A stretch of 64,000 bases of DNA from a candidate division WWE3 bacterium (GTDB taxonomy: Bacteria; Patescibacteriota; 4484-211; GCA-002791395): assembly GCA_013335095.1 (NCBI GenBank), contig JAAXWF010000002.1:80516-144515 (forward strand), written 5' to 3'. Both the position numbers and the translations under genes were made by a program. Below the pieces are notes generated by a model. The model worked only from the letters and a program-made list of their open reading frames with translations. It had not been told where the DNA came from and made no database searches. Shown one piece after another: positions 5,649 through 59,269 of this stretch (position 1 is its first letter; each line of letters begins with the position of its first letter).

Positions 5649-8579
5649 ATGAAGAATAGTAATACAAATAAAAACTATTTAGCTGTTATTGTTGTAGCAA
5701 CGGTATTAATGGTAACTTCAATTATAGGAATATCAACATATTATCCACCAACTAAAGGCTCCCTTTCTACTATATTTCCCAAAAAAGAATCTTCGGCACA
5801 AACCGGAACTCTTCAGGTTAGCAACAACTTAATCCTGAATCAAAATAACGAACGTTTTATCTTTAAAGGCGTCAATTTGGAATTTTACCGAGACATGAAT
5901 GTCAGTAATGTAACGTATACCGGTTGGGAAAAAAGAAATCAGATTGTTTCAAAACTAAAATCACTAGGAATAAATGCCGTACGTGTGAACTATAGATCAG
6001 ACAGTATCAAATCGACGGCAAATGGACATACAGAGAACGGAAACATCTCTCAGCTACTTGATATGCTAAAACTCTTTTCTGATAATGGTATTTATGTTAT
6101 GCCGAGTGACCACATCTTTACCGGCAATGACATAGCAAATAAAGAGAATCTTTCATTCCCAAATTTCAAGAAAGTAATTGATGATTCACGAGCTCGGGGA
6201 TATGAACACATGCTAATAATGAATCCTTACAATGAACCATATAATAACGAAAACTGGTCTGCATGGGCAAGCGAAAATAAATCTACGTTAGATTACTTGC
6301 GGTCAACGCTTCAGTTTAAGGGTCTTATAATCTTAGACAATCCATTATGGGCAGGAGCTATAAACGTAGACCAAGCAAAACAACTCCTAGCATATGACAA
6401 AACGTTACTTGGTGGCTCTACCGAATTAGCCTTTTCAAATCATTATTATCCCAATTGGGGATTAGATGGACCCAATCAAGTGATGACATCAGCAAAGTCA
6501 ATCCCTTTAATTTTAGGAGAGCTCGGCCAATGGTCTTCACAAGGATCTAATCCCAACTATGTAATATCAGTACTCGATTTACTGGTTAAGACAGGCATTC
6601 CAAATGGTCATAATGGTTTGTTCCCATGGATCTGGAATTGGAGTGATGCAAATACGATGACGAGTTCAGATCAGCTAACATTAAATAGTCATGGAGACTT
6701 ATTTGTTAATAACTATTATTCCAAAATTGTATCTAATTCGAATACTCCCGTTCCGTCTGCTGTAATAAATCCGACATCAACGCCAGTCACCGGAAACCAA
6801 TTATCCAATATCCCCTCAACAATATTAAATGGACTTCGTGAAGGTGGGGTAAATCTTGTATTTGGTTGGTGGGATCCACATGGATATGCTCCGACGGAAT
6901 TCGACGATGATCTACCAATAATAAAAGCAAAAGGTGGAGGACATATCAGACTACCTGTAAGTTCTGACTTAATTGAGGAAGGTACAACTGGTAAGGTAAA
7001 GGAAAGCACTTGGCAAGAATTAAAAACATTTATCGAAAAAGCAAAGAGCAATGGCTTAGTCACAGTAATTGATTTGCATCACCTCGGCGTATTTTCTTTA
7101 GATTACTATCAAGGGAAGTCAACTGATACAAGCTGGACTGATTTTATGGATAAAATAAGATACACAGATTGGGCAGCCCGACATATATCATTATCTGAGG
7201 ACATTGCGAAACATATTAACAGAGATTTAGATAAAAGTTGGGTTGTTTTTCAACCTGCAAATGAACCAATATTTACCGGAAACAATGAACCGCAGATTTG
7301 GTATAACCACCAAAATAAACTAATACCTGCAATTCGTCGCGGTTGCAGCGACTGCACTATCTTTATCATGTCGCACTCCTGGCAAAGCATTGGTGCAACC
7401 GTAGATAATATGAACTTCTCTCAAATGCAATGGTGGGACAATAAGATGATCATTGACATGCATTACTATTCACCACTAGACCTAACGCATTGTGGATATA
7501 CTTCGAGTACGAATAATTGTGCTGGAAAACAATGGCCGGGAACATATACAGGTTGGACGACATTCGGTACTGAACATAACGGCACATGGGATAAAACATT
7601 TCTTGAAAGAGAATTTAAGCGGGTGTGGGATTATCAACAGAAAAACCCTGGTGTAGTAGTGCATTTTAGCGAGATAGGAACTCACTCGGGGCTAGAAGAT
7701 ATAACTCGATCTGCATATCTACGCGATGTGACATCAATACTAAGCGCCAATGGAGTTGGCTGGTCATGCTGGGAGTGGGATAAGAACTTTGGAATCATTA
7801 ATCATCCCAAAACGATTGAAGCATGTTTAGGTACAACCGGAATGTCGGTATCGCCATATCCAACATCGCAAGCTTCAATCACACCTACTCCGACATTACA
7901 TGTAAGCAATTCACCGACCCCGTCAACAACGCTTGCTCCAACTCAAACTCCTAGTGCTGGTTTTTATAGAGGAATCAATCTTGGTGGTACAGATATAGCA
8001 ATTAACGGAAACACCTGGTCTGGTGAAGCTACTGCTAATATAAGCGCACTTGGAACGTCAAAGTCAAACCAGTGGTTGAATTTAAATCCATCTGCTGACG
8101 CACAAATGACAAAAATGCTGCAAGACTGGCAAGAGCACTGGAATCATGAGATTACTATTAATAATATTGCTCCTGGTAAATATCGTTTATATGTTTATGG
8201 AGTAATGGATTGGAATGATTCAAATGCACAAACAATTACAAGCTATGTAAATAATCAGAGAATAGGAGAGTGGAAACCAGCTACGAGTGGATCATGGGTT
8301 AAGATGGGACCATGGGATGGGTTAATAACTAATGGAACGGCAACGATTACGACTAGTGCAACTAATAACAAACTTGCTGGAATAGAGATTTATCGTCTTT
8401 TAAGAGCTGATATAAATAACGATGGGATTGTTAACATTTTTGATCTTGGATTACTTTCAGTACATTATGGCGAGCAGTTAACAACATCCAGTGACGCTAT
8501 TGTTCGTAACTGCGATATTAATCAAGATAATGTAATTAATGTTTTCGATGTATCAATCCTAATACAAGAATATAAATAG
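5649..8579 (+). CDS. secreted multidomain glycoside hydrolase: two GH5-like (clan GH-A) catalytic domains, a putative carbohydrate-binding beta-sandwich, and a C-terminal type-I-dockerin-like module
   Basis: Signal-anchor (LAVIVVATVLMVTSIIGI). Domain 1: 'FKGVNLEFY…GINAVRVNY…IMNPYNEPYNNENW' (NEP acid/base) and 'ILGELGQWSS' (GExG-type nucleophile context). Domain 2: 'GHIRLPVSSD…VIDLHH…VFQPANEPIFTG…VHFSEIGTHSG'. The C-terminus 'DINNDGIVNIFDLGLLSVHYGE…CDINQDNVINVFDVSILIQEY' has two Ca-binding-loop-like dockerin segments. Confidence 0.75.
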   Translation: MKNSNTNKNYLAVIVVATVLMVTSIIGISTYYPPTKGSLSTIFPKKESSAQTGTLQVSNNLILNQNNERFIFKGVNLEFYRDMNVSNVTYTGWEKRNQIVSKLKSLGINAVRVNYRSDSIKSTANGHTENGNISQLLDMLKLFSDNGIYVMPSDHIFTGNDIANKENLSFPNFKKVIDDSRARGYEHMLIMNPYNEPYNNENWSAWASENKSTLDYLRSTLQFKGLIILDNPLWAGAINVDQAKQLLAYDKTLLGGSTELAFSNHYYPNWGLDGPNQVMTSAKSIPLILGELGQWSSQGSNPNYVISVLDLLVKTGIPNGHNGLFPWIWNWSDANTMTSSDQLTLNSHGDLFVNNYYSKIVSNSNTPVPSAVINPTSTPVTGNQLSNIPSTILNGLREGGVNLVFGWWDPHGYAPTEFDDDLPIIKAKGGGHIRLPVSSDLIEEGTTGKVKESTWQELKTFIEKAKSNGLVTVIDLHHLGVFSLDYYQGKSTDTSWTDFMDKIRYTDWAARHISLSEDIAKHINRDLDKSWVVFQPANEPIFTGNNEPQIWYNHQNKLIPAIRRGCSDCTIFIMSHSWQSIGATVDNMNFSQMQWWDNKMIIDMHYYSPLDLTHCGYTSSTNNCAGKQWPGTYTGWTTFGTEHNGTWDKTFLEREFKRVWDYQQKNPGVVVHFSEIGTHSGLEDITRSAYLRDVTSILSANGVGWSCWEWDKNFGIINHPKTIEACLGTTGMSVSPYPTSQASITPTPTLHVSNSPTPSTTLAPTQTPSAGFYRGINLGGTDIAINGNTWSGEATANISALGTSKSNQWLNLNPSADAQMTKMLQDWQEHWNHEITINNIAPGKYRLYVYGVMDWNDSNAQTITSYVNNQRIGEWKPATSGSWVKMGPWDGLITNGTATITTSATNNKLAGIEIYRLLRADINNDGIVNIFDLGLLSVHYGEQLTTSSDAIVRNCDINQDNVINVFDVSILIQEYK
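8397..8576 (+). other. dockerin type-I-like duplicated Ca2+-binding segment (C-terminus of the GH5 protein)
   Basis: Two copies of D-x-N-x-D-G/N-x-V-N-x-x-D followed by hydrophobic helices (DINNDGIVNIFDLGLL / DINQDNVINVFDVSIL). Confidence 0.6.
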
Positions 8580-36130: not shown

Positions 36131-36260
36131 TACAAAACGACTAAATTAACTATAGCACAATTTATAGAGATGAAGTGGGATAATTGGCTTTCATCTCGAT
36201 AAAAAGTCACCTACCAACATTTCAAACCGATGGTAATCAAAACTGCTACAATAATTAAAT

Positions 36261-38480
36261 ATGACGCCACCTCGGATAGAAAGATTTAAGCCCGATGACG
36301 AATTTGAACCCGGTGAGCAAGAGGCTAAAGAACGAGAAGTTGGCGGTGAGGAAAGACGATCTCCAGTAGAAGGTGTTGATATACACGAAGAAGAAATATT
36401 AAACGATCAAATAGCACAGCAAGAAGACCGACTTGAATTATTGCAGCAGGAAGCCCATACAACCGAGGACCGACTCGCCGCGGCAAGAGCAGAACTGGGA
36501 ATAGAAACAGCTGACCCCATAACGAATCGAACAAATGCCGAGATCAATCATATTCAAGAGACATTAAAACTACTTAGATATAAACTACTAACCGTAAGAC
36601 TACGAAAACCAGAACAAACACCAACACGGGATGAAAAAGAGAAAGAACCGCGCTTACCAAAACAACCAGTAGCAACAGAAAAAGAACTTTATGCAAATCT
36701 TGGCCGAATATTAGATGCAAAACAACGAATAATATTCAATCAAATTTATCGAAGAACTCTAGGTTGGCCAACAGAAAAAAATCTCGAAGCAATGGCAGGA
36801 TTGGAGAATTGGCAATCATTAGGGTGGGAATACTATGTACTATCCGGGCGGGAAGGTTTATACAAAATGAACTTTCCGATGGTTATTGAACGTGATCCCG
36901 GAAAAACAACGCCTGTTGATAGAGCAAGTAGCTTGGCGTCTGGTGCATTAGAGTTTGCTCATCAAGTTAGAACCGGAACACTACCGCAGGAAGTAATACC
37001 GGCAACATCAACATCCCCCGAAACACCACTCGATGAAACTCAATACGCAAGAATATTTGGATCATCACGAATGCCAGGAGAACGAGTAGATAGCATCCAA
37101 CTTTCTAAAAATAATCCGACTCATTTTTTGGTTAAGGTTAAAGGTCATTATGTCAGGATCGAAGGATTCCGTGATGATGAACCAATTCCTGCTGAAGAAG
37201 TAAGGGCACAAATTGCTGCAGCGGTCGAATCAATCAACGATTTACCAGACGCACCACCAATCGGTGCGATCACCGCGGGGAACCGAAAACGAAACTTTGA
37301 ATTTCGACAACGAATACAGAGCTCGACGGCGAATCAGGAACTCCAAGATGAAATTGACCAATCACTTTTTGTCGTATGTATAGATCCCGAATCGAAACCA
37401 GATACGCTTGCCGATGAAATGGCCGAAGTAAGAGACAGCAAAGGGAAAAACCTAGGAAATCGAGAGTATAATAAAGGACTTCAAATTATTGTCAGCGGAT
37501 CGGATGAAAGAGGAGCATCAGCTGGATTTTCATTTGAACATGCACTTGTAGATGGAACTGTCGGTGGACGATTTGCTGTAGATGTATCACGAATGGCCCG
37601 ACGTATCGAGTATCAAGGAGAACCACAACGAGCAGAACAAATTGAAATTAAAGATTGGGAATCGTCTCCTCAACTCGCTGAAATGGCTCAAGCAGCACAG
37701 GCTGAGGTAGAAAAAAAATTGGAAAACAGTGATGAAACGACCTTTGAACTTGAGGGTGATTGGCTAGAGCGTTGTAAACAATTTGGTATAAAAGGTGATA
37801 CGGCATTTCAGATGGCGCTCCAAATTGCAGAGTATATGAAATATCGAAAGCCGATCTCGAATTCTGAACAAGTTAGTCTGCGAGCGTTTGAAAAAGGTCG
37901 GATTAATCCAACAGGCGTGACAACTCATGGGGTCAAAGAATTCTTGCGTGATTTTGGTGAAGTAATATCAGCAGTAGAACACGTTGAAGAAGACGGGGAC
38001 GTTGAAAAAGCCATACGCCAACCAGCATATGCAAAGCGCCTCGGACAGGCTCTGGCCAAAGCAATTCAAGATCATGAGAAAACTATCGATCTTGCCAAAT
38101 CCGGAAAAGGCGTAGAAACTCACTTAATGGCTCAATGGGCGGCATTAAACCCTAGCAATCCGAGTCTAAACGCCGAGGCTCAAACCGCAGCAGATAACCT
38201 TTTTCGAAATCCCGCGATGGGTGTACGTTCATTCCTACAACCTATTTTAGTTAGTTCAAACTTAAGACCACGTTCCGATCGTGGAGAGGTGGTTGCGGCA
38301 GGGACAAAGCCTTCTCGAAGTAAAAGAGGAAATCTGTCATTAGGATATTTATTACAAGGTAGAAAAATCTCGGTAAATGCCCGCACCGAGGGTAAGATGA
38401 AGGATCATGCCGAAGATATTAGCCACTATCTTGAATCGGCGCTTAATATTGTCGCTGAACTTGCTCCATATACTCAATAA
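36261..38480 (+). CDS. choline/carnitine O-acyltransferase family (Carn_acyltransf-like) protein with ~150-aa acidic coiled N-extension
   Basis: 'YARIFGSSRMPGERVDSIQLSKNNPTHFLVKVKGHYVRIEGFRDDEPIPAEEVRAQI' parallels the family region '…Q..kiFstcRiPg...Dsi.....+.p.HivV..rg.fy.l.v...dG.pl...ei..Ql'. 'GFSFEHALVDGTVGGRF' matches the catalytic-His motif hEHxxxDG of carnitine/choline acyltransferases. GC is visibly higher (~45%+) than the flanks. Confidence 0.55.
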   Translation: MTPPRIERFKPDDEFEPGEQEAKEREVGGEERRSPVEGVDIHEEEILNDQIAQQEDRLELLQQEAHTTEDRLAAARAELGIETADPITNRTNAEINHIQETLKLLRYKLLTVRLRKPEQTPTRDEKEKEPRLPKQPVATEKELYANLGRILDAKQRIIFNQIYRRTLGWPTEKNLEAMAGLENWQSLGWEYYVLSGREGLYKMNFPMVIERDPGKTTPVDRASSLASGALEFAHQVRTGTLPQEVIPATSTSPETPLDETQYARIFGSSRMPGERVDSIQLSKNNPTHFLVKVKGHYVRIEGFRDDEPIPAEEVRAQIAAAVESINDLPDAPPIGAITAGNRKRNFEFRQRIQSSTANQELQDEIDQSLFVVCIDPESKPDTLADEMAEVRDSKGKNLGNREYNKGLQIIVSGSDERGASAGFSFEHALVDGTVGGRFAVDVSRMARRIEYQGEPQRAEQIEIKDWESSPQLAEMAQAAQAEVEKKLENSDETTFELEGDWLERCKQFGIKGDTAFQMALQIAEYMKYRKPISNSEQVSLRAFEKGRINPTGVTTHGVKEFLRDFGEVISAVEHVEEDGDVEKAIRQPAYAKRLGQALAKAIQDHEKTIDLAKSGKGVETHLMAQWAALNPSNPSLNAEAQTAADNLFRNPAMGVRSFLQPILVSSNLRPRSDRGEVVAAGTKPSRSKRGNLSLGYLLQGRKISVNARTEGKMKDHAEDISHYLESALNIVAELAPYTQ

Positions 38481-38510
38481 AAAACCGCCAAAGAAGGCGG
38501 TTTGGCAAAA
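38481..38510. terminator. bidirectional rho-independent terminator between convergent genes
   Basis: A perfect hairpin aaccgcc-aaagaa-ggcggtt (38483-38502) is flanked by A-run upstream and T-containing tract downstream. Read on the - strand it is followed by TTTTTTATT, which is strong for the - gene 38520..39179. Confidence 0.5.
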
Positions 38511-38519
38511 TAACGGCAG

Positions 38520-39179
38520 CTATTTTGCAATTTGGTCGATACGTTGTCTTATTCCTGCAATTCGTCGACTGAGTTGATCACGTCGGCGTCCGAGATCTCG
38601 TGATTCTAACATCAGTTGAAGGCGTTGAGTGTCGATCTCGATACGTTCCTGTAGTAGGGCTTGATAATTAGGTTCGGCATCGGGGCGTTGATCCTGACGT
38701 GATTGCATAAGCGACACGATATGCTCCGGGGATAGAGCAATGATCTCACACGAAGAGACCTGCTGTTTCGTAAGATGATGCTCATAACCTCCTTTGACTG
38801 AATTCCATCGGATCCAGGTATGAGCTCCCACGACTTTGTGCCCCAGACCGAAAAAAGGTTCCCGCCACGAAATCCCAACGCCAACACGCAGCATTATCCG
38901 CTGATAGGCAATAATCAATCGGAATTGGTTGTGCAGATAAGCCGCGCTTCCAAAAGCATGACTCATCTCATGGAGCACAACCGGCCACAACTGCCATTCA
39001 CCCAATACAAGAAAGTCACCGAGATATGTTGGATGTTGGAAGGTAAAAAGCAAAGATCGACGGGCTGATGGCCCAGACAATTTCTGGCTTTCAAATACGA
39101 CCAAGGGCTGTTGCGTGATGTAGGGAATCCGGGCGACGATAGCATGTACGATTTGTGGATCAGACATACGATCCTCCAT
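38520..39179 (-). CDS. HExxH-motif putative zinc metallohydrolase (possibly DUF45/YgjP-like) with C-terminal coiled-coil tail
   Basis: 'VLHEMSHAFGSAAYLHNQF' is H-E-x-x-H plus a third His spaced as in YgjP/DUF45-type metal sites. The C-terminal 60 aa are R/Q/L-rich heptad-like. No TM. Family assignment is tentative. Confidence 0.45.
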   Translation of the reverse strand: MEDRMSDPQIVHAIVARIPYITQQPLVVFESQKLSGPSARRSLLFTFQHPTYLGDFLVLGEWQLWPVVLHEMSHAFGSAAYLHNQFRLIIAYQRIMLRVGVGISWREPFFGLGHKVVGAHTWIRWNSVKGGYEHHLTKQQVSSCEIIALSPEHIVSLMQSRQDQRPDAEPNYQALLQERIEIDTQRLQLMLESRDLGRRRDQLSRRIAGIRQRIDQIAK

Positions 39180-39308
39180 AGATACAATGTGCCAATACGC
39201 TTCGCTGAGTGAATGCTATCAAAGTTTTAAGTTTTTCTCAAATTGAATTGAAAGTAAAAAGAATCAGGAGCCAGCATCCAGCCGGCTCCTGTGATTTATG
39301 CGTACAAA

Positions 39309-40460
39309 CTATTCCGCCGAGACCTCCTCAGCGACTTCTGCTGGCCCCTCGGCCAGGCCGTCCTCAGCCTCCGTTTCTGCGGGCTGCGCCACGGCAGCCT
39401 TGCCCGGAGCCTCCATCGCTCCGACGCAGTCACGAAGAAGTTGGATGGCCGGATCCAGTCGAATCTTGGTGCGAAGATCAGGCCGGTCCTGGGGGATCGG
39501 CGATGTCCTACTGCCATTCAGCAGATGTGGTACGTATGGATTCCCCCCCTTGGTCGGAGTGACCAAGTGAGCAAACCACACACCAACCATCTGCAGCGCC
39601 TCGGCCTCCTCGTCGGTCAGATCCTGACCCCGCAGCCGAGCTTCGGTCTTACGAACCGATGCAATGAGCCCCGGAACCTCGCGCAGGTCCCGAATGCCGC
39701 ACGCCAGAATACCAAAGTGCCCCTTGTCGATGACGACACTAAGGGCAACATCGACCTTGGCCTTTGCCGCAGTCCTCCGAAGTGGGCTAGCCAAATTGTC
39801 AGGGGTGACAATCAGACCGATACGCCGACCGTTCGGCAGCACTTCAACCAGAATCAGTGGCTCCGCAGTGTTAGAAGGGCGCTTGATCTGGCTAACGACG
39901 AGCGGACGCACCAGGGCCGCCTGGTTTTGGCGGCGGGTGTTCGCCCGAATTGAATCGACATAGGTGCGAGCGAATTGGAGAACCTCATCATCTGAGGAAT
40001 CCTCCATACCCAAAATCGCCCCAGCCAGAGTCGCCCAGCGGCTATGAAGTTCACCGGTGTCCGATAGGGTGGCCAGGTTCACGACATCCCGGTAGTCGCC
40101 CAGGGGTGACTGAGGATGGGTAAACATATTCCGCGTCAGTCGGTTGAACTTGGCTGCCGCCGACGGGTCTTTCCCATCGTGGTGATCGAGTTTAGAATCA
40201 GGACCACCGCAGTCACAGAACCAATAGGCGACGAAGTTCACCATCGTATAGTATCCATCCGGCCGAGGCCTGATGACTTTACCATTCGACAGACGGTACT
40301 CCGTACCCTGCGGAATAAGCCGAAGCTCGATCGGCCCCTCAAATCGGAGCTGCTCACGAATGAAGTCCTGAGCCATCAGCATAGTGATGATGGCATCGGC
40401 ATCTCTGTGCCCCAAAAGCACGTGACGCTCAATCCTTCCGGCACCATTCACCGGGGGCAT
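39309..40460 (-). CDS. hypothetical protein (383 aa) in a ~60% GC segment; acidic Ala/Glu-rich C-terminal tail
   Basis: Longest ORF in a region where high GC produces many overlapping shadow ORFs on both strands. It has a strong SD (aaggaggg) 4 nt upstream of the ATG at 40460. No family recognised. Confidence 0.5.
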   Translation of the reverse strand: MPPVNGAGRIERHVLLGHRDADAIITMLMAQDFIREQLRFEGPIELRLIPQGTEYRLSNGKVIRPRPDGYYTMVNFVAYWFCDCGGPDSKLDHHDGKDPSAAAKFNRLTRNMFTHPQSPLGDYRDVVNLATLSDTGELHSRWATLAGAILGMEDSSDDEVLQFARTYVDSIRANTRRQNQAALVRPLVVSQIKRPSNTAEPLILVEVLPNGRRIGLIVTPDNLASPLRRTAAKAKVDVALSVVIDKGHFGILACGIRDLREVPGLIASVRKTEARLRGQDLTDEEAEALQMVGVWFAHLVTPTKGGNPYVPHLLNGSRTSPIPQDRPDLRTKIRLDPAIQLLRDCVGAMEAPGKAAVAQPAETEAEDGLAEGPAEVAEEVSAE

Positions 40461-40559
40461 GGCTCCCTCCTTATTGCGTCGTTATCAAGACGCAAACATA
40501 TTGGATGTGCGAAACAGAATAATTATAGCAAAATAATGCAAAGAAATAAACTATAGGAT

Positions 40560-40598
40560 AACAACTATAAACGCCACTGATAATAAACCAGCGGCGTC
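40560..40598 (-). terminator. probable rho-independent terminator downstream of the RRM-protein gene
   Basis: Hairpin acgccactg / cagcggcgt (9 bp with one G·U-compatible position on the - strand transcript), loop ataataaac, followed on the - strand by a T-rich tract ttatagttgtt. Confidence 0.35.
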
Positions 40599-40614
40599 AT
40601 AGTTTGATAGGTTG

Positions 40615-40887
40615 TTACTCACCGTTGTTGTTTTGGTTACGCTCAGGACGAGCTTCATTAACAACCAATGGGCGACCACCAAAATCCTTCTCATGAAACA
40701 TTTGAATAGCTGCTTGAGCAGCTTCTGGAGTTGCCATTTCAACAAACCCAAAACCGCGACTTCTTCCAGTATCACGATCAAGAATAACTTTAGCTGACTT
40801 TACTTCACCAGCTGCTGAAAAAGCTTGCATGAGCTCTTCATCAGTAGTCGAAAACGGCAGATTACCAATATATAGTCGTAAATTCAT
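40615..40887 (-). CDS. RNA-binding protein, single RRM domain (glycine-poor short form)
   Basis: RNP-2 'LYIGNLPF' and RNP-1 'RGFGFVEM' at canonical spacing. Confidence 0.85.
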   Translation of the reverse strand: MNLRLYIGNLPFSTTDEELMQAFSAAGEVKSAKVILDRDTGRSRGFGFVEMATPEAAQAAIQMFHEKDFGGRPLVVNEARPERNQNNNGE

Positions 40888-41147
40888 CGTTGATCACCCC
40901 CTTTCGGGCAGCAATACTCTATCTAAGATTTGAAAAGAAGTCACGGAGAAACCATCGAAAGTAAGGTTAATTACGTCAATCATCGAAACCAAATAACAAC
41001 ACTCTTAAACAATAGTCTTATTATAGCGCACATACATATTTCAATCTAGTCAATCTCAAAAGTGCTCACACATACACAAGAAAAAACAACGCGCGATTAA
41101 AATATTTTAAAAATCATGAAACATTCTTTCGCTTCAGTAATTACACT

Positions 41148-41756
41148 CTACGTGATCAAATTTCTAAATAGATCCAAAAATTTGGGATAATTAATATAGT
41201 AGATAAATCCAGTAAAAAGCATCAACCCGGGGAATATCACCGATTTTTCAAACATACCACCGGCTTTAACTCGTAGAGCTTTAACTGGGGGGAACCCAAA
41301 ATTCCATGGCAAGGGAAAGAGTAGCGGAACGCCTTCCTTGGTAAACGTGTCCATAAAAATATGCGAAACGAGTCCGATCATAAACGCCCACCACACCACA
41401 TTCATATCGACTACTAAAATATGCGCAATAGAACTTAGCAGCCATTGCATACCGATGCCAATAATAACTATTCCGACAATAGAGTGAGCGATCATTCGAT
41501 GTCCTCCAAAGAGTGGACTTAGAATTCTCCCCCAAATACTGCCCGCAGGAATACGCCGCCAGAGGTCAGAGGTGGGTTGATCAAGATCAGGGGCTAACCC
41601 GCCAATAAAATTAGCCGCCAATGAAACCAGCATTGTCGCCATGGTCATTTGAGGAAGGGGAGTATAAGCAGCAACGATGCTTAAGGTCGTAAATGCCGCT
41701 AAATCATGAGTTCGGGCTACCATACCATTTAGTCTAGCATAAATAATACGTGACAA
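41148..41756 (-). CDS. membrane-bound metal-dependent hydrolase, YdjM/DUF457-like
   Basis: Polytopic membrane protein with 'GGHRMIAHS' and 'SHIFMDTFTKEGVPLLFPL', characteristic of the LexA-regulated inner-membrane hydrolase family. Confidence 0.5.
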   Translation of the reverse strand: MSRIIYARLNGMVARTHDLAAFTTLSIVAAYTPLPQMTMATMLVSLAANFIGGLAPDLDQPTSDLWRRIPAGSIWGRILSPLFGGHRMIAHSIVGIVIIGIGMQWLLSSIAHILVVDMNVVWWAFMIGLVSHIFMDTFTKEGVPLLFPLPWNFGFPPVKALRVKAGGMFEKSVIFPGLMLFTGFIYYINYPKFLDLFRNLIT

Positions 41757-41842
41757 AATTTGCTTTTTTAATTGAGGATATCGGTGTTTAAGTGAAAAGT
41801 ACCCCGGACTTATCGCCAGGGGTACAGGGAACTATATTGCTC

Positions 41843-43033
41843 CTACAGGGTTCGAGGACGCATTAATGCGAGCATGGCTTCGTTTCCCTGATGCTCTCTC
41901 CGGCGTTCCTCATCACACTCCTGAGTACGCTGATTGTAAGCAGTAATCGCAATTCGAATTGCATCAAGGGTTGCAACCGCCCAATCTTCAGACAGCATGC
42001 GCTGAGCTGCTGATAGCATCCGTTCGTCATACACGCCGAATCGACTCAGATTGGTAACAGCAATGCTGGATTCGACTAATTGACGACGAATAGATGATAA
42101 CTCAGGACGATCGGCTGCATACAGATAGACCGAAGCAACCGTATGGGTATCGATAAAACGCACCCCATCAGGCCACTCTAGTTCCAGTAGAAACGCGATC
42201 TGTGCCATTATCAGTTCCCAGTCATACCGGGAACCATCAGTACGATCGACCGACCTTTCCAGCGTGTATATAAACCACGGCAAAATGAGTTCATCATCAC
42301 GTGGCAAGATTCCGTTGTAAGACAACTGCTCAACGATCAACTGCTGAACGTGCTGATTTGCCCGAGCCCTCCATTCACGAGGGGTGAGAGGATCAAGCAT
42401 AAGATCCTCAAACGGCCACCACATATCTTCCATCCCGCCATACACGGGTGTGCCCAAATCATATACAAGAAACATCCTCTCGGCTAACTCAGGATTAGCA
42501 CGAGAATGAATGCCTCGTATTATCTGGCTATACCGAATCAATAGCCAACGAGCCCGATCTCCAAATCGCTCGGGATGCTGATGAACCCATCCCGCGAAGA
42601 GCTCAATTAAGACCGCACACCACCCAATCAAACGATCGGGGATTTTGCTGCAGTCAAGCGAGTAATACGTTAAGAGACTTTCCGACGCCCCATATTGGGC
42701 AATGTCCCAATTTACGAAGGGCTGAACGAGATTCAAATCTGGTGCGAGCAATAGTAACAATGCCCGCGCACCAAACCCGACATCATACCGATCTGGCTGA
42801 CTATATAAATCAACCAGGTCGTGTAGGCTACGTGACTTATGCAAAAGCCAGCGGCGCCAAATTGAATGTTGGGTCTTAAGGATCAATTGTTCCTTAAGTG
42901 CATTACGCCAAAGAGCAACAAGCTGCTTATACACAGCGCGATCCCGTTGTGGTAAGACCCATCCCTGAAGAACCAACCGGAAGTCAGTACCCGAATGCAT
43001 GCGAAGCATAGCTCCTCCTTGTCCTAACACCAA
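41843..43033 (-). CDS. hypothetical cytoplasmic protein (396 aa), Trp/Arg-rich, moderately GC-elevated
   Basis: Long uninterrupted ORF with no recognisable motifs; composition differs from neighbouring low-GC genes. Confidence 0.45.
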   Translation of the reverse strand: MVLGQGGAMLRMHSGTDFRLVLQGWVLPQRDRAVYKQLVALWRNALKEQLILKTQHSIWRRWLLHKSRSLHDLVDLYSQPDRYDVGFGARALLLLLAPDLNLVQPFVNWDIAQYGASESLLTYYSLDCSKIPDRLIGWCAVLIELFAGWVHQHPERFGDRARWLLIRYSQIIRGIHSRANPELAERMFLVYDLGTPVYGGMEDMWWPFEDLMLDPLTPREWRARANQHVQQLIVEQLSYNGILPRDDELILPWFIYTLERSVDRTDGSRYDWELIMAQIAFLLELEWPDGVRFIDTHTVASVYLYAADRPELSSIRRQLVESSIAVTNLSRFGVYDERMLSAAQRMLSEDWAVATLDAIRIAITAYNQRTQECDEERRREHQGNEAMLALMRPRTL

Positions 43034-51619: not shown

Positions 51620-52084
51620 ATGCCTGGGATTATCATCCCTCAGGTGGAGCAGATGGACGGCGACGACATTGTCGAGCATTGTCGGGCTGGTGATCTCTTG
51701 GGCGACATCGTCTCGGCAATCGCCCATATGGACCAGGGCGGCTATGGTCCGATTAATTCAGAAATGGGCTGTGGAATCGCCATCAGTGTGATTCCACCGT
51801 TCATTGCTCACAACGTGGAATTGTATCGGGTGTACCGTCTGGTGATGTTCGGGCCAAAACGCAAAATCGGCATCTTAGCCGAATACCAGGCCACCATCGC
51901 TGGCTCGGGCGATAAGCCTGGACCGTTCCCCGGTCTCACCGAGGGTCGGCGGTTCTTCAGTGGTATCAGCCTGGGACTCAGCTCAGGTGTCTCCCTGGAG
52001 ATGGGTGCCGAGCGATTCATGTCAATCGCACACATCGCGAGGGACGCCATCGCCCAGGCATCCCAACGCCTTGGCATTGATTAG
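51620..52084 (+). CDS. hypothetical protein (154 aa) in a short GC-rich (~58%) segment
   Basis: Longest of several overlapping ORFs in a compositional island of about 500 bp; no family recognised. The upstream hairpin agcctc-aata-gaggct (≈51583-51598) may be regulatory. Confidence 0.35.
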   Translation: MPGIIIPQVEQMDGDDIVEHCRAGDLLGDIVSAIAHMDQGGYGPINSEMGCGIAISVIPPFIAHNVELYRVYRLVMFGPKRKIGILAEYQATIAGSGDKPGPFPGLTEGRRFFSGISLGLSSGVSLEMGAERFMSIAHIARDAIAQASQRLGID

Positions 52085-55730: not shown

Positions 55731-56546
55731 TCATGTCCGTTGACACAAGAATAGCATCTTCATGCCGTGGCCGGTACCAAATGGGGTGCCGTCATAATCA
55801 GACCAGCGATCGATAATCGTAAACCCTGCATCTGCTAGAAGAAGTTCCCATTCAGCCGGGAAGATCATCCGCATCGTTGTTTGGGAGCGATAACACCGAT
55901 TGGCAATAAGCCGGCCAATAGCATCATAAAAGTTGTAGAAGTACGTTACTTCGAGCAACTGTGTCGCAGGATGATAGCGAGTAGTGTAGCTACGTACTAG
56001 ATTATAGCCATCCGCAAGCTGAGCCTCGCGCTCAATGATAGGAGCATGCCGAGTAAGGCCATGGGCTAACTTTGCCGGATCGGGTAAAAACACATCAGCC
56101 ACAAAGTGGCCACCAACCTGCAGATGGTTGTGACAGTTATGTAATGCGGCGCGCTGGTCGTGTGTAGTGAGCAGGTGCGCGAAGCTATGAAACGGGACAA
56201 GGACGAGGTTATATCGCTCGATACCTGCATTGACCGTGCGCATATCACCTTCTATCAACTGCAATTGTGATTGTAGGCTCGGGTCCTCGGCGGCTACTTT
56301 CGCACTTGCCCGAGAAAGCATATCTGGTGATAAATCAACACCAGTGACCCAATACCCAAGCTGCATTGCCTGCCAAGCGATGGGCAAGGTTATACGTCCG
56401 GTTCCGCACGCCATTTCAAGTACATGACCTCCCCGCGCATACATCCGGCAAAGACGTTTACTCCAGGCGATATCCGCTGTTAGATCCGCATATTCCGCAT
56501 CGTAATCAGGCGCATGTCGATAGAAATCGACGACCGAAGTGTCCAT
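55731..56546 (-). CDS. class I SAM-dependent methyltransferase
   Basis: Motif I 'VLEMACGTGRITLPIA' (hh[DE]hGxGxG), motif II region 'YNLVLVPF'. GC is moderately elevated. Confidence 0.7.
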   Translation of the reverse strand: MDTSVVDFYRHAPDYDAEYADLTADIAWSKRLCRMYARGGHVLEMACGTGRITLPIAWQAMQLGYWVTGVDLSPDMLSRASAKVAAEDPSLQSQLQLIEGDMRTVNAGIERYNLVLVPFHSFAHLLTTHDQRAALHNCHNHLQVGGHFVADVFLPDPAKLAHGLTRHAPIIEREAQLADGYNLVRSYTTRYHPATQLLEVTYFYNFYDAIGRLIANRCYRSQTTMRMIFPAEWELLLADAGFTIIDRWSDYDGTPFGTGHGMKMLFLCQRT

Positions 56547-57211: not shown

Positions 57212-59269
57212 CTACTTCGCTACAACCGGAATTGTTTGAATGTCGACTGAACGATTTGAGCCGTTTTCGTTCAGATTGAGTCCGAGCAACGACAGAATCC
57301 CTCCAATTGGAATTGAACCAATCAGTTGGAAGTTTGCCCGCTCACGAATCCGATTTATCGCCGAAACGACATCGGTCTCACCCTGCATAAGCTGTTCGAC
57401 CTGCTCCAAGGCATCAGCCAGGCTGAGATTCGAGAATACCCTTGGATCAATCTCACCAAGAACACCCCGTACCCGAGCCATGATCGAGACAAGACTCGAC
57501 CAAAGTTCGGTCGATTCAGGACTACCTCCACTACCAAAAAGATTACCGATTACTGGGATTTCATGCCCAACAACCGAAGCACCTTCGGATAGTGAAAGCA
57601 GCTGATTAATCAGCTGACTCATCTGACCGCCATTACCAAACAGCCTGACGTCCAGCTGAGGAGCCAGAGCTTTGAACGCCTCAAGTCGGGTTTCAGCCTG
57701 TAGCCGTGCCAGTTCGAGCTGAAGCGTATGATCCATACGAATCCGCTCAAGATCGACCAGTACGGGAGCCTCGGCGTATAGAGTAGCCAAGAGCCGCTGA
57801 GCTTCGATACTAGCGGCTTGCCTCGCCCTGTCGATCTCGACCTGGGCAAGACCTTCGGCACGAACGACCTCAACGCGCTTCTGGTCTACCGCGACCTGAG
57901 CTGCAGCAATTTCGGCAGCAGCCAAGCCTGATGCAGCTTCACGTGCTCGAGTTGCATTAGCCTCAACCAACGCAGCCTGTGCGGTGATCGTTGCCGATTC
58001 AGCCTGCGCGCGTGCCTGAGCAAGCTGAGCCTCAGTTTGTGCTCGAGTTGTAATACTCTGAGCCACGGCTTGTGATTCAGCGGCAATCCGCTCTGTTTCG
58101 GCGGCACTACCAGCAGAAATTAGCCGGACTTCTTTCTCACGCTCGGCAGCGGCTAAATCGCGTTGCCGGTCAATTGCAGTCTGCGCAGTTGTAGCTTCGC
58201 TCTGAAGCTGGATTTGAGCTGTTTGAACAGCCCGGTCCTTTTCAGCATCAGCTACGGCGCGACTCCGCGCGAGTTCAATATCTCGAGTCTGCTGAGCTGT
58301 AAGTCGCTCACCATCGAGGGCTATTTGAGCAAGCGCAGCGGAATGCTCACGCTGAGCGACGGTTTGATCACGTTCAACCTGAGCCAGGCGCAACTGGTGA
58401 GTTGCGGCGGCCAATGATTCTCGTTGATCATTCGTTGCCGTCTCAACATCGCGTTGAGTACGAAGCTCTCGCTGTTTAACATCCAGCGTTGTAGCCGTAG
58501 TCAATTCAGACTCACGGCGTGTTCTGGCATTATCGTCCTCAATGCGTGTTAATTCAGCGGCATTGATACCGATGGTCGTCTGAGCAGTAACCTCAGCCGT
58601 CGCTTGTCGAACGATTTGATCGTAGGCGTCACCGGCTAACCGGATTACACGCAAAAACGCCAAATCATAACCAAGCTCGGCCAGAGTCGTATTGACCCGG
58701 TCGGTCGCAACATCACCAAGACGTTGCATATTCGCAATAATCTCGTCGAGGGACATCGAGGCAGCCGCAACAATCAGCTGAGTCGTTGTTTCGGAGATAA
58801 TCGAGTGTACAAGACCCGACACGTCCGTACCGACACGCTGAGCAGCCACCAAGGCCTTTGACGAATCCAATTTAGCTTCGACATGAGCCCAGGCCCTAAA
58901 AGAGACCCGGTGCTTATCGAGGAGCTCAATGCCTCGCTCACCTTCACCAGAAATCTCAACGGTAAAGCTGTATGTTCGAAGCTTTACCACCTGAGCATTG
59001 GCGTTAAGCCAATAGATTGATGGCGCACCAGCGGTCTGACCGAATACGCTGGTTTCTTTACTCGGTGCCCAACTGTGAATCCCGTGGCCTACAACCACAT
59101 GGACTTCATCGGGCCGAACAATTACTCGATTACCAAAGCCAAATATGCGCCAAAATCCGCGCACGCGATCGGCTTCGGTCGAAAGAGAGGCCATAACTTC
59201 GGTGACCGACTGACCACGCCCACCCTGTGACGTATTCACGAATGATGCTCCTTCACTGTACGAATACAC
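57212..59269 (-). CDS. flotillin-like SPFH/band-7 domain protein with long Ala/Glu/Gln-rich coiled-coil
   Basis: N-terminal SPFH fold (…VKLRTYSFTVEISGEGERGIELLDKHRVSFRAWAHVEAKL…MSLDEIIANMQRLGDVATDRVNTTLAELGYDLAFLRVI…). It is followed by ~250 aa of AEAxRExE-type flotillin repeats. Distinctly GC-rich (~55%). Confidence 0.55.
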   Translation of the reverse strand: MYSYSEGASFVNTSQGGRGQSVTEVMASLSTEADRVRGFWRIFGFGNRVIVRPDEVHVVVGHGIHSWAPSKETSVFGQTAGAPSIYWLNANAQVVKLRTYSFTVEISGEGERGIELLDKHRVSFRAWAHVEAKLDSSKALVAAQRVGTDVSGLVHSIISETTTQLIVAAASMSLDEIIANMQRLGDVATDRVNTTLAELGYDLAFLRVIRLAGDAYDQIVRQATAEVTAQTTIGINAAELTRIEDDNARTRRESELTTATTLDVKQRELRTQRDVETATNDQRESLAAATHQLRLAQVERDQTVAQREHSAALAQIALDGERLTAQQTRDIELARSRAVADAEKDRAVQTAQIQLQSEATTAQTAIDRQRDLAAAEREKEVRLISAGSAAETERIAAESQAVAQSITTRAQTEAQLAQARAQAESATITAQAALVEANATRAREAASGLAAAEIAAAQVAVDQKRVEVVRAEGLAQVEIDRARQAASIEAQRLLATLYAEAPVLVDLERIRMDHTLQLELARLQAETRLEAFKALAPQLDVRLFGNGGQMSQLINQLLSLSEGASVVGHEIPVIGNLFGSGGSPESTELWSSLVSIMARVRGVLGEIDPRVFSNLSLADALEQVEQLMQGETDVVSAINRIRERANFQLIGSIPIGGILSLLGLNLNENGSNRSVDIQTIPVVAK

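Follow-up and report, generated by a model that had tools for sequence, protein, structure and literature searches.

What a protein with the carnitine/choline acyltransferase fold, known from the textbook eukaryotic biochemistry of the fatty-acid shuttle and acetylcholine synthesis, does in a candidate division WWE3 bacterium is the question raised by the present locus. The gene is found in a 64,000-nucleotide stretch of contig JAAXWF010000002.1 (assembly GCA_013335095.1, positions 80,516 to 144,515), the whole of which is called here the window, and occupies positions 36261..38480 of the plus strand as a single open reading frame (ORF) of 739 amino acids plus stop with an ATG start, just as it was first described. 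An initial annotation, made from the sequence alone, regarded the product as a eukaryote-like choline/carnitine O-acyltransferase acquired on an island of shifted G+C content (GC) and possibly engaged in acyl-carnitine or choline metabolism or in interaction with a host. The explanation that we consider probable is a catalytically competent, stand-alone cytoplasmic acyltransferase of the PF00755 family with a rebuilt acceptor pocket, whose acceptor is probably neither carnitine nor choline. The family assignment as such is already public through the automatic annotation of NCBI, which holds the identical protein under the name [quoted passage not shown] as the sole member of its cluster, on a single contig of 358,632 bp, and there is no NCBIfam model for it. 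What appears to be new, as far as sequence and predicted structure can tell, is the combination, in a bacterial PF00755 enzyme that stands alone, of a rebuilt acceptor pocket with an N-terminal helical extension unique to this protein.

The PF00755 (Carn_acyltransf) profile matched the protein with E=1.3e-68 and 232.4 bits (cut-off 22.3), spanning residues 171-724 of the protein and positions 44-572 of 574 in the profile, which is nearly its full length. Among PDB sequences the protein matched choline acetyltransferase (ChAT; 2.8e-21), carnitine acetyltransferase (CrAT; 4.7e-20), carnitine palmitoyltransferase 2 (CPT2; 1.5e-16), and carnitine octanoyltransferase (COT; 1e-9), and no other families. 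The AlphaFold2 (AF2) model of residues 150-739 reached a predicted local distance difference test (pLDDT) value of 90.3 and a predicted TM-score (pTM) of 0.92 and displays the two-domain CAT-like fold of PF00755, in which the active site lies at the domain interface; Foldseek aligned it with all ChAT, CrAT, COT, and CPT2 structures at TM-scores of 0.78-0.83 (0.82-0.83 for 1q6x, 1ndb, and 2h4t), the next fold class being the condensation-type domains of nonribosomal peptide synthetases with TM-scores <0.4. Taken together, the profile, PDB, and fold matches indicate that the resemblance is not limited to the short motifs first picked out by eye, all of which were located in the ORF (FSFEHALVDGTVGG from residue 423 and ARIFGSSRMPGERVDS from residue 263, with the family N-terminal motif PRLPKQPV from residue 130), so that the proposed PF00755 membership is upheld. 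The catalytic domain, for which these four sources (PF00755, PDB, AF2, and Foldseek) are the evidence, comprises residues 128-739 (36642..38477, plus strand).

An exhaustive HMMER search, for which the catalytic domain was the query, covered 1.84 billion cluster representatives, and for the assignment of individual residues 127 near-full-length sequences taken from its 150 best matches were aligned by MAFFT L-INS-i, supplemented with two independent hmmalign runs and with pairwise phmmer. The mouse CrAT sequence was rebuilt from the profile-versus-PDB alignment with the numbering set as chain index + 8, and on this scale His343, Tyr452, Ser454, Thr465, Arg518, Ser552-Thr553-Ser554, and Met564 fall where they are expected. 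The catalytic motif EHALVDG covers residues 426-432 (37536..37556, plus strand), where His427 corresponds to CrAT His343 and Asp431 to Glu347; the alignment with the His of ChAT and CrAT was the same in phmmer, MAFFT, and both hmmalign runs, as the first reading of this motif had supposed. His343 is the catalytic residue of CrAT (PMC11852590). The His column reads H in 115 of the 127 aligned sequences and the 347 column reads D in 108, the Asp that replaces CrAT Glu347 being thereby the choice of the family majority. The counterpart of the STS motif is VSS at residues 664-666 (38250..38258, plus strand), in which the first Ser (Ser552) is changed to Val664, and the oxyanion residue is preserved as Ser666, equivalent to CrAT Ser554. 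At the coenzyme A (CoA) site Lys423 and Asp430 are kept as Lys506 and Asp513, and Lys419 is replaced by Leu502. To judge from these alignments, the protein possesses a carnitine-acyltransferase fold in which the general base, the transition-state Ser, and part of the CoA site appear intact.

The acceptor side is of another kind. In CrAT the carboxylate of carnitine is, as we take it, bound by Tyr452, Ser454, Thr465, and Arg518, while Ser554 presumably stabilises the oxyanion or transition state; the aromatic positions Tyr107, Tyr452, and Phe566 are assumed to line the quaternary-ammonium (trimethylammonium) pocket of CrAT and ChAT, positions 465 and 518 to discriminate ChAT from CrAT, and Met564 to determine acyl-chain length. 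The acceptor-site strand and loop of the WWE3 protein, SEQVSLRAFEKGRI (residues 535-548; 37863..37904, plus strand), contains Ser535 in place of Tyr452, Gln537 in place of Ser454, and Ile548 in place of Thr465, and the position of CrAT Arg518, which supplies the counter-charge to the carnitine carboxylate and is Asn in ChAT, is taken by Thr620 of the motif GVETHL (38118..38120, plus strand). Hence every carnitine-carboxylate ligand is replaced, although all four are kept in 60 of the 127 aligned homologues, a proportion with which the ligand roles assumed above are consistent. In addition, CrAT Tyr107 is represented by Val193, with Tyr192 adjacent, and position 566 falls on either Thr682 or Ala680, according to how the loop is aligned, so that the Phe566 equivalent is probably non-aromatic, as no version places an aromatic residue there. 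The acceptor-side core is retained, with Ser456, Arg458, and Arg464 of CrAT found as Ser539, Arg541, and Arg547. Together these changes (Y452S, S454Q, T465I, and R518T, non-aromatic equivalents of Tyr107 and Tyr452, and probably of Phe566) speak against the suggested part in acyl-carnitine or choline metabolism.

The relatives that group with the protein also lack the carnitine ligands. The HMMER search returned 1301 matches at E<=1e-3, of which 385 reached E<=1e-10, and below 1e-30 only the acyltransferase itself; the best non-self match is P0002 (E=1.3e-27, 30% identity), no relative above about 30% was present among the cluster representatives, and a word-indexed protein search gave only the self-match, whether the query was the whole protein, its catalytic domain, or a 31-sequence profile. 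None of the four carnitine ligands is present in 30 of the 127 sequences (the query and 29 others), which cluster together in the neighbour-joining (NJ) tree of this set; the immediate clade of the query contained only sequences with 0 or 1 ligand in 100/100 NJ bootstraps, and in 75/100 it included P0006, which shares the THLMA and VSSN motifs. A hidden Markov model (HMM) of the 29 other ligand-less sequences, built without the query, gave the query 374.6 bits, compared with 258.5 bits for the HMM of the canonical group and 243-253 bits for size-matched canonical subsets. Identity is 24-30% for the nearest relatives and only 21-26% for the sub-group members compared, and the sister sequences contain Pro or Ala at position 454 and Leu at position 465.

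The members of the ligand-less sub-group are bacterial in all seven cases checked by gene context or source name. P0002 adjoins MacB/FtsX, an HlyD-like protein, a fatty-acid desaturase, and a flavoprotein; P0006 adjoins PBP2 and glutamate racemase (MurI); P0111 adjoins UbiA, RecA, RecX, and RNase Y; P0069 adjoins a Mur ligase, Ddl, and SUF genes; P0126 adjoins HSP20; P0019 (L009 8001-9791) is located between gidA-gidB-parA-parB and the atp operon of a 3.0-Mb chromosome; and P0036 comes from a Bdellovibrionia metagenome-assembled genome (MAG). The eukaryote-like character first ascribed to the protein is consequently not borne out, since it groups with ligand-less homologues by both HMM score and bootstrap, and the accompanying view that bacterial members of the family are rare fares no better, given the 29 other ligand-less sequences that cluster together and the bacterial source of the seven checked.

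Several side observations concern the same set. The genes of P0111 and P0069 (L005 1902-4699 and L006 4955-7552, both in GCA_034680565.1) each have a PF03059 gene 20-30 bp behind them, and the pair of PF00755 and PF03059 (nicotianamine-synthase-like) genes is possibly a two-gene biosynthetic module; no homologue of the PF03059 gene was found in the 64-kb window. The catalytic His column of P0019 reads Arg in the alignment. In P0009, P0014, P0015, P0018, P0032, P0038, P0091, and P0143 the catalytic His is changed to R, P, A, S, or T, and these homologues share an ITSR-type signature at the STS and 566 positions; judging by their residues, the His-less PF00755 homologues are probably non-catalytic or mechanistically different.

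Against this background the reading closest to the database name, that of a genuine carnitine or choline O-acyltransferase handling acyl-carnitines or choline from the environment or a host, has to be regarded as unlikely. It can rely on ChAT and CrAT as the best PDB sequence matches, on the preserved catalytic His and Ser, on the neutral Ile and Thr at 465 and 518, which resemble the Val and Asn of ChAT, and on the automatic NCBI name; however, the loss of the four carboxylate ligands argues against carnitine, the equivalents of Tyr107 and Tyr452 are Val and Ser and that of Phe566 is Thr or Ala by loop alignment, and the canonical HMM scores 116 bits below that of the non-carnitine group. With CrAT (1ndb, 1nm8), COT, and CPT2 the protein has in common the PF00755 family, the two-domain fold, and the TM-scores given above, and with CrAT also the E-H-x-x-x-D/E-G motif with its catalytic His, the STS-motif Ser, and the equivalents of Lys423 and Asp430, but the identity to CrAT is only about 20%, the carboxylate site is composed of Ser, Gln, Ile, and Thr, Val stands in for Tyr107, neither loop alignment puts an aromatic residue at the Phe566 position, and the protein is bacterial and stand-alone with an extra 127-aa N-terminal helical extension. 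ChAT (2fy2, 1q6x) is the best match both in sequence and in structure (TM-score 0.83) and likewise has neutral residues at 465 and 518, yet the ChAT-like sequences keep the Tyr452 and Ser454 equivalents and have Tyr at 566 (signature Y-S-V-N/C/V), the aromatic/polar trimethylammonium pocket characteristic of ChAT is absent here, and the ChAT-like matches P0086, P0115, and P0130 fall in the canonical clade, away from the query.

Closest by both profile and tree are the ligand-less homologues P0006, P0111, P0069, P0126, P0002, and P0019, which show the same ligand loss and differ in that the acidic N-terminal extension is present only in the WWE3 protein. A precedent for a PF00755 acyltransferase outside the carnitine shuttle is provided by the cAT domain of a fungal highly reducing polyketide synthase (PKS) of Trichoderma virens, which is reported to esterify polyketide products (Hang et al. 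2017, cited in PMC8582187); this domain is a C-terminal fusion to a PKS and receives its acyl group from the synthase, whereas the WWE3 protein stands alone, with no PKS or acyl carrier protein (ACP) genes found in the 64-kb window. On its residues, then, the protein lacks the substrate-site features of carnitine acyltransferases and of ChAT, and it is not a PKS-fused cAT domain.

The extent of remodelling in the acceptor pocket also leaves room for an acyl-CoA thioesterase, in which water would be the acceptor, or for a non-catalytic scaffold working through the coiled-coil extension. Related alcohol acyltransferases can show thioesterase activity in vitro according to one report (PMC5484351), and a neighbouring sub-group of homologues lacks the catalytic His, so that non-catalytic members do exist in the family. 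Nevertheless, although overall identity is only about 25%, His427, Asp431, Ser666, Lys506, and Asp513 are all present, implying selection on catalysis, and Ser539, Arg541, and Arg547 of the acceptor-side core are likewise kept; we therefore hold this explanation to be improbable.

The predicted placement of the enzyme in the cytoplasm follows from the absence of any hydrophobic segment: no transmembrane segment or signal peptide was detected in the protein (the maximum 19-residue Kyte-Doolittle value is 0.65), and the N-terminus is highly charged. This N-terminus is a lineage-specific extension of residues 1-127 (36261..36641, plus strand), delimited from the AlphaFold full-length model and from composition. 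The model presents residues 1-39 as disordered (pLDDT about 36) and acidic, followed by long helices at 41-79 and 86-114 (pLDDT 70-85), which form a hairpin or a coiled coil, and by a flexible linker at 116-126; the extension as a whole has a net charge of -13. The acidic coiled-coil region described at the outset is thus present, acidic, and helical, but its length is about 127 aa instead of about 150. No comparable extension was found in any of the 8 relatives aligned. That the extension is coding is indicated by its coding-type GC1/GC3 of 0.67/0.28 (GC at first and third codon positions) and by the 3-12 stops that the other five frames carry across its 381 nt. Apart from the ATG at codon 1, the first 140 codons hold a single candidate start, TTG at codon 61; a downstream true start, which was considered and rejected, would have to use this TTG and would still leave no fewer than 67 extension residues.

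The gene is monocistronic, being divergent from the upstream LamG gene and convergent with the downstream minus-strand ORF. It is separated from the last giant LamG gene (minus strand) by a divergent intergenic region of 130 bp (36131..36260), inside which both promoters presumably lie; a scan of this spacer for the sigma-70 consensus gave no site, and no Shine-Dalgarno-like motif was seen in the 20 nt upstream of the ATG. Between the convergent stop codons there is a G+C-rich hairpin (38482..38508), likely a terminator, with a run of T after it on the minus strand.

Under the explanation preferred here, that of a competent cytoplasmic acyltransferase with a new acceptor, an acyl thioester, most likely acyl-CoA or else a pantetheine thioester, would bind in the conserved CoA tunnel, and His427, oriented by Asp431, would deprotonate the acceptor hydroxyl. 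Ser666 would then stabilise the tetrahedral intermediate, and acyl transfer, presumably to oxygen, would yield an ester and CoA-SH. The acceptor may be a neutral alcohol, probably more hydrophobic or bulkier than carnitine and choline, as is expected from Ser, Gln, Ile, and Thr at the ligand positions and from the non-aromatic equivalents of Tyr107 and Tyr452; its hydrophobic character is suggested by Ile at 465 and Val at 552, together with the Pro/Ala at 454 and Leu at 465 of the sister sequences. The acidic helical extension would most likely mediate oligomerisation or the docking of a partner, and the gene would be a long-resident part of a WWE3 genome of the Patescibacteria, or candidate phyla radiation (CPR), expressed alone and outside any operon.

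Some points weigh against this explanation. Bacteria of the CPR are generally poor in acyl-CoA metabolism, and neither an acyl-CoA synthetase nor a CoA-biosynthesis gene is present among the genes of the 64-kb window, on account of which the donor could be a non-CoA one. Lys419 of the CoA 3'-phosphate site is Leu502. The 564-569 loop, which determines acyl-chain length and forms part of the ammonium pocket, aligns ambiguously and differs across the three alignments, and the roles of Tyr452, Ser454, Thr465, Arg518, and Ser554 are assumed here on the basis of crystallographic work on CrAT (Jogl & Tong 2003; subsequent papers from the Tong laboratory). Literature searches yielded no biochemical work on the acyltransferase, its sub-group, or any bacterial PF00755 enzyme, and no conserved gene neighbourhood hints at the acceptor.

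A more specific and rather speculative version, to which we would give little credence, makes the protein a lipid-remodelling acyltransferase of a CPR episymbiont that re-esterifies scavenged host-derived hydrophobic alcohols, for which lysolipids, diacylglycerol, and fatty or isoprenoid alcohols would be the candidates. In this version the carnitine pocket would have turned hydrophobic (Ile548 and Val664, with Leu or Pro there in the nearest relatives), and the N-terminal coiled coil would tether the enzyme to membrane-proximal uptake machinery. If true, it would offer the first enzymatic handle on membrane tailoring by bacteria that are unable to make fatty acids. More generally, the acyltransferase and the homologues that cluster with it show that bacteria carry versions of the fold with the catalytic core kept and the acceptor pocket changed, which implies substrates beyond the known ones, and in the minimal, host-dependent metabolism of the CPR any retained acyltransferase is likely to be relevant to lipid or metabolite salvage. 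As the protein is already annotated and its gene context is uninformative, its value lies in being a target for biochemical screening and not in being a surprising discovery.

As to the origin of the gene, its GC3 of 0.286 is to be compared with 0.28-0.36 in the housekeeping and LamG genes, and its total GC of 0.433 is slightly raised only because of the first codon positions (GC1 0.605), which reflect Glu/Asp/Ala-rich codons. Compared with the remainder of the window, its relative synonymous codon usage (RSCU) gives a correlation of 0.80, the values for MetRS and 6PGD being 0.84 and 0.76. The GC shift begins directly past its stop codon, with the minus-strand ORFs at 38520-39179 (GC3 0.445, RSCU r=0.53), 39309-40460 (GC3 0.641, r=-0.29), and 41843-43033 (GC3 0.471, r=0.41). 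The gene is therefore compositionally native, though it borders a foreign-looking patch, and the claim of acquisition on a GC-shifted island is not sustained, as the gene itself matches the host in GC3 and codon usage and the shift is confined to its downstream neighbours; an ancient transfer may still have taken place. A scan of the GTDB species genomes with the protein gave no relative, while a scan with BipA gave Saccharibacteria and WWE3 MAGs as the best matches (61-63% identity); no PF00755 gene was found within +/-10 kb of BipA in any of 80 other genomes, mostly Patescibacteria, and synteny was not usable. No tRNA genes, Rfam families, or phage-family matches that could serve as island markers were detected in the window. 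The effector-like role once suggested likewise finds no signal peptide or transmembrane segment in the protein and no secretion-system context in the window to lean on. A recently acquired eukaryotic gene or secreted effector on a genomic island, which might be read from the adjoining GC-shifted orphan ORFs (38520-43033), the lack of anything above about 30% identity, the absence from the 80 BipA loci, and the acidic disordered N-terminus, is thus very improbable, since GC3 and RSCU are those of housekeeping genes (neighbours 0.45-0.64, r -0.29 to 0.53), the nearest relatives are bacterial at only 24-30% identity, and evidence of a mobile-element gene, a tRNA, or flanking repeats is lacking together with that of export.

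The remaining genes of the window fit a member of the Patescibacteria/CPR and include MetRS, G6PD/6PGD, BipA, LytR_C proteins, a type-IV pilin-like protein, and PMT_2/GT2 glycosyltransferases. Besides the three downstream neighbours, further GC-shifted ORFs are found at 51620-52084 (plus strand), 55731-56546 (minus strand), and 57212-59269 (minus strand), which makes six scattered ORFs with GC3 of 0.45-0.67 and RSCU r of -0.29 to 0.53 in a genome of 41% GC. They look like foreign patches; they are not mutually paralogous, and none has a Pfam, PHROG, or PDB match except that at 55731-56546, which encodes an S-adenosylmethionine (SAM) methyltransferase. The 80 loci flanking BipA in other genomes, mostly of Patescibacteria, do not contain the ORFs at 38520-39179, 39309-40460, and 41843-43033. 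A 90-aa ORF (about 40615-40887, minus strand), below the ORF length cut-off and with the GC-shifted ORFs on one side and the YdjM gene on the other, has by eye the look of an RNA-binding protein of the RNA recognition motif (RRM)/RNP-1 type (RGFGFVEM).

On the other side of the acyltransferase gene the adhesin array noted initially is indeed adjacent: five tandem paralogous giant genes on the minus strand (8614-36130), which take up 43% of the window, encode LamG-type surface proteins of 1675-2076 aa with Laminin_G_3/DUF2341 domains, 31-41% pairwise identity, and an N-terminal hydrophobic anchor in each. Beyond them a GH5 cellulase of 976 aa with a C-terminal type-I dockerin is encoded on the plus strand (5649-8579).

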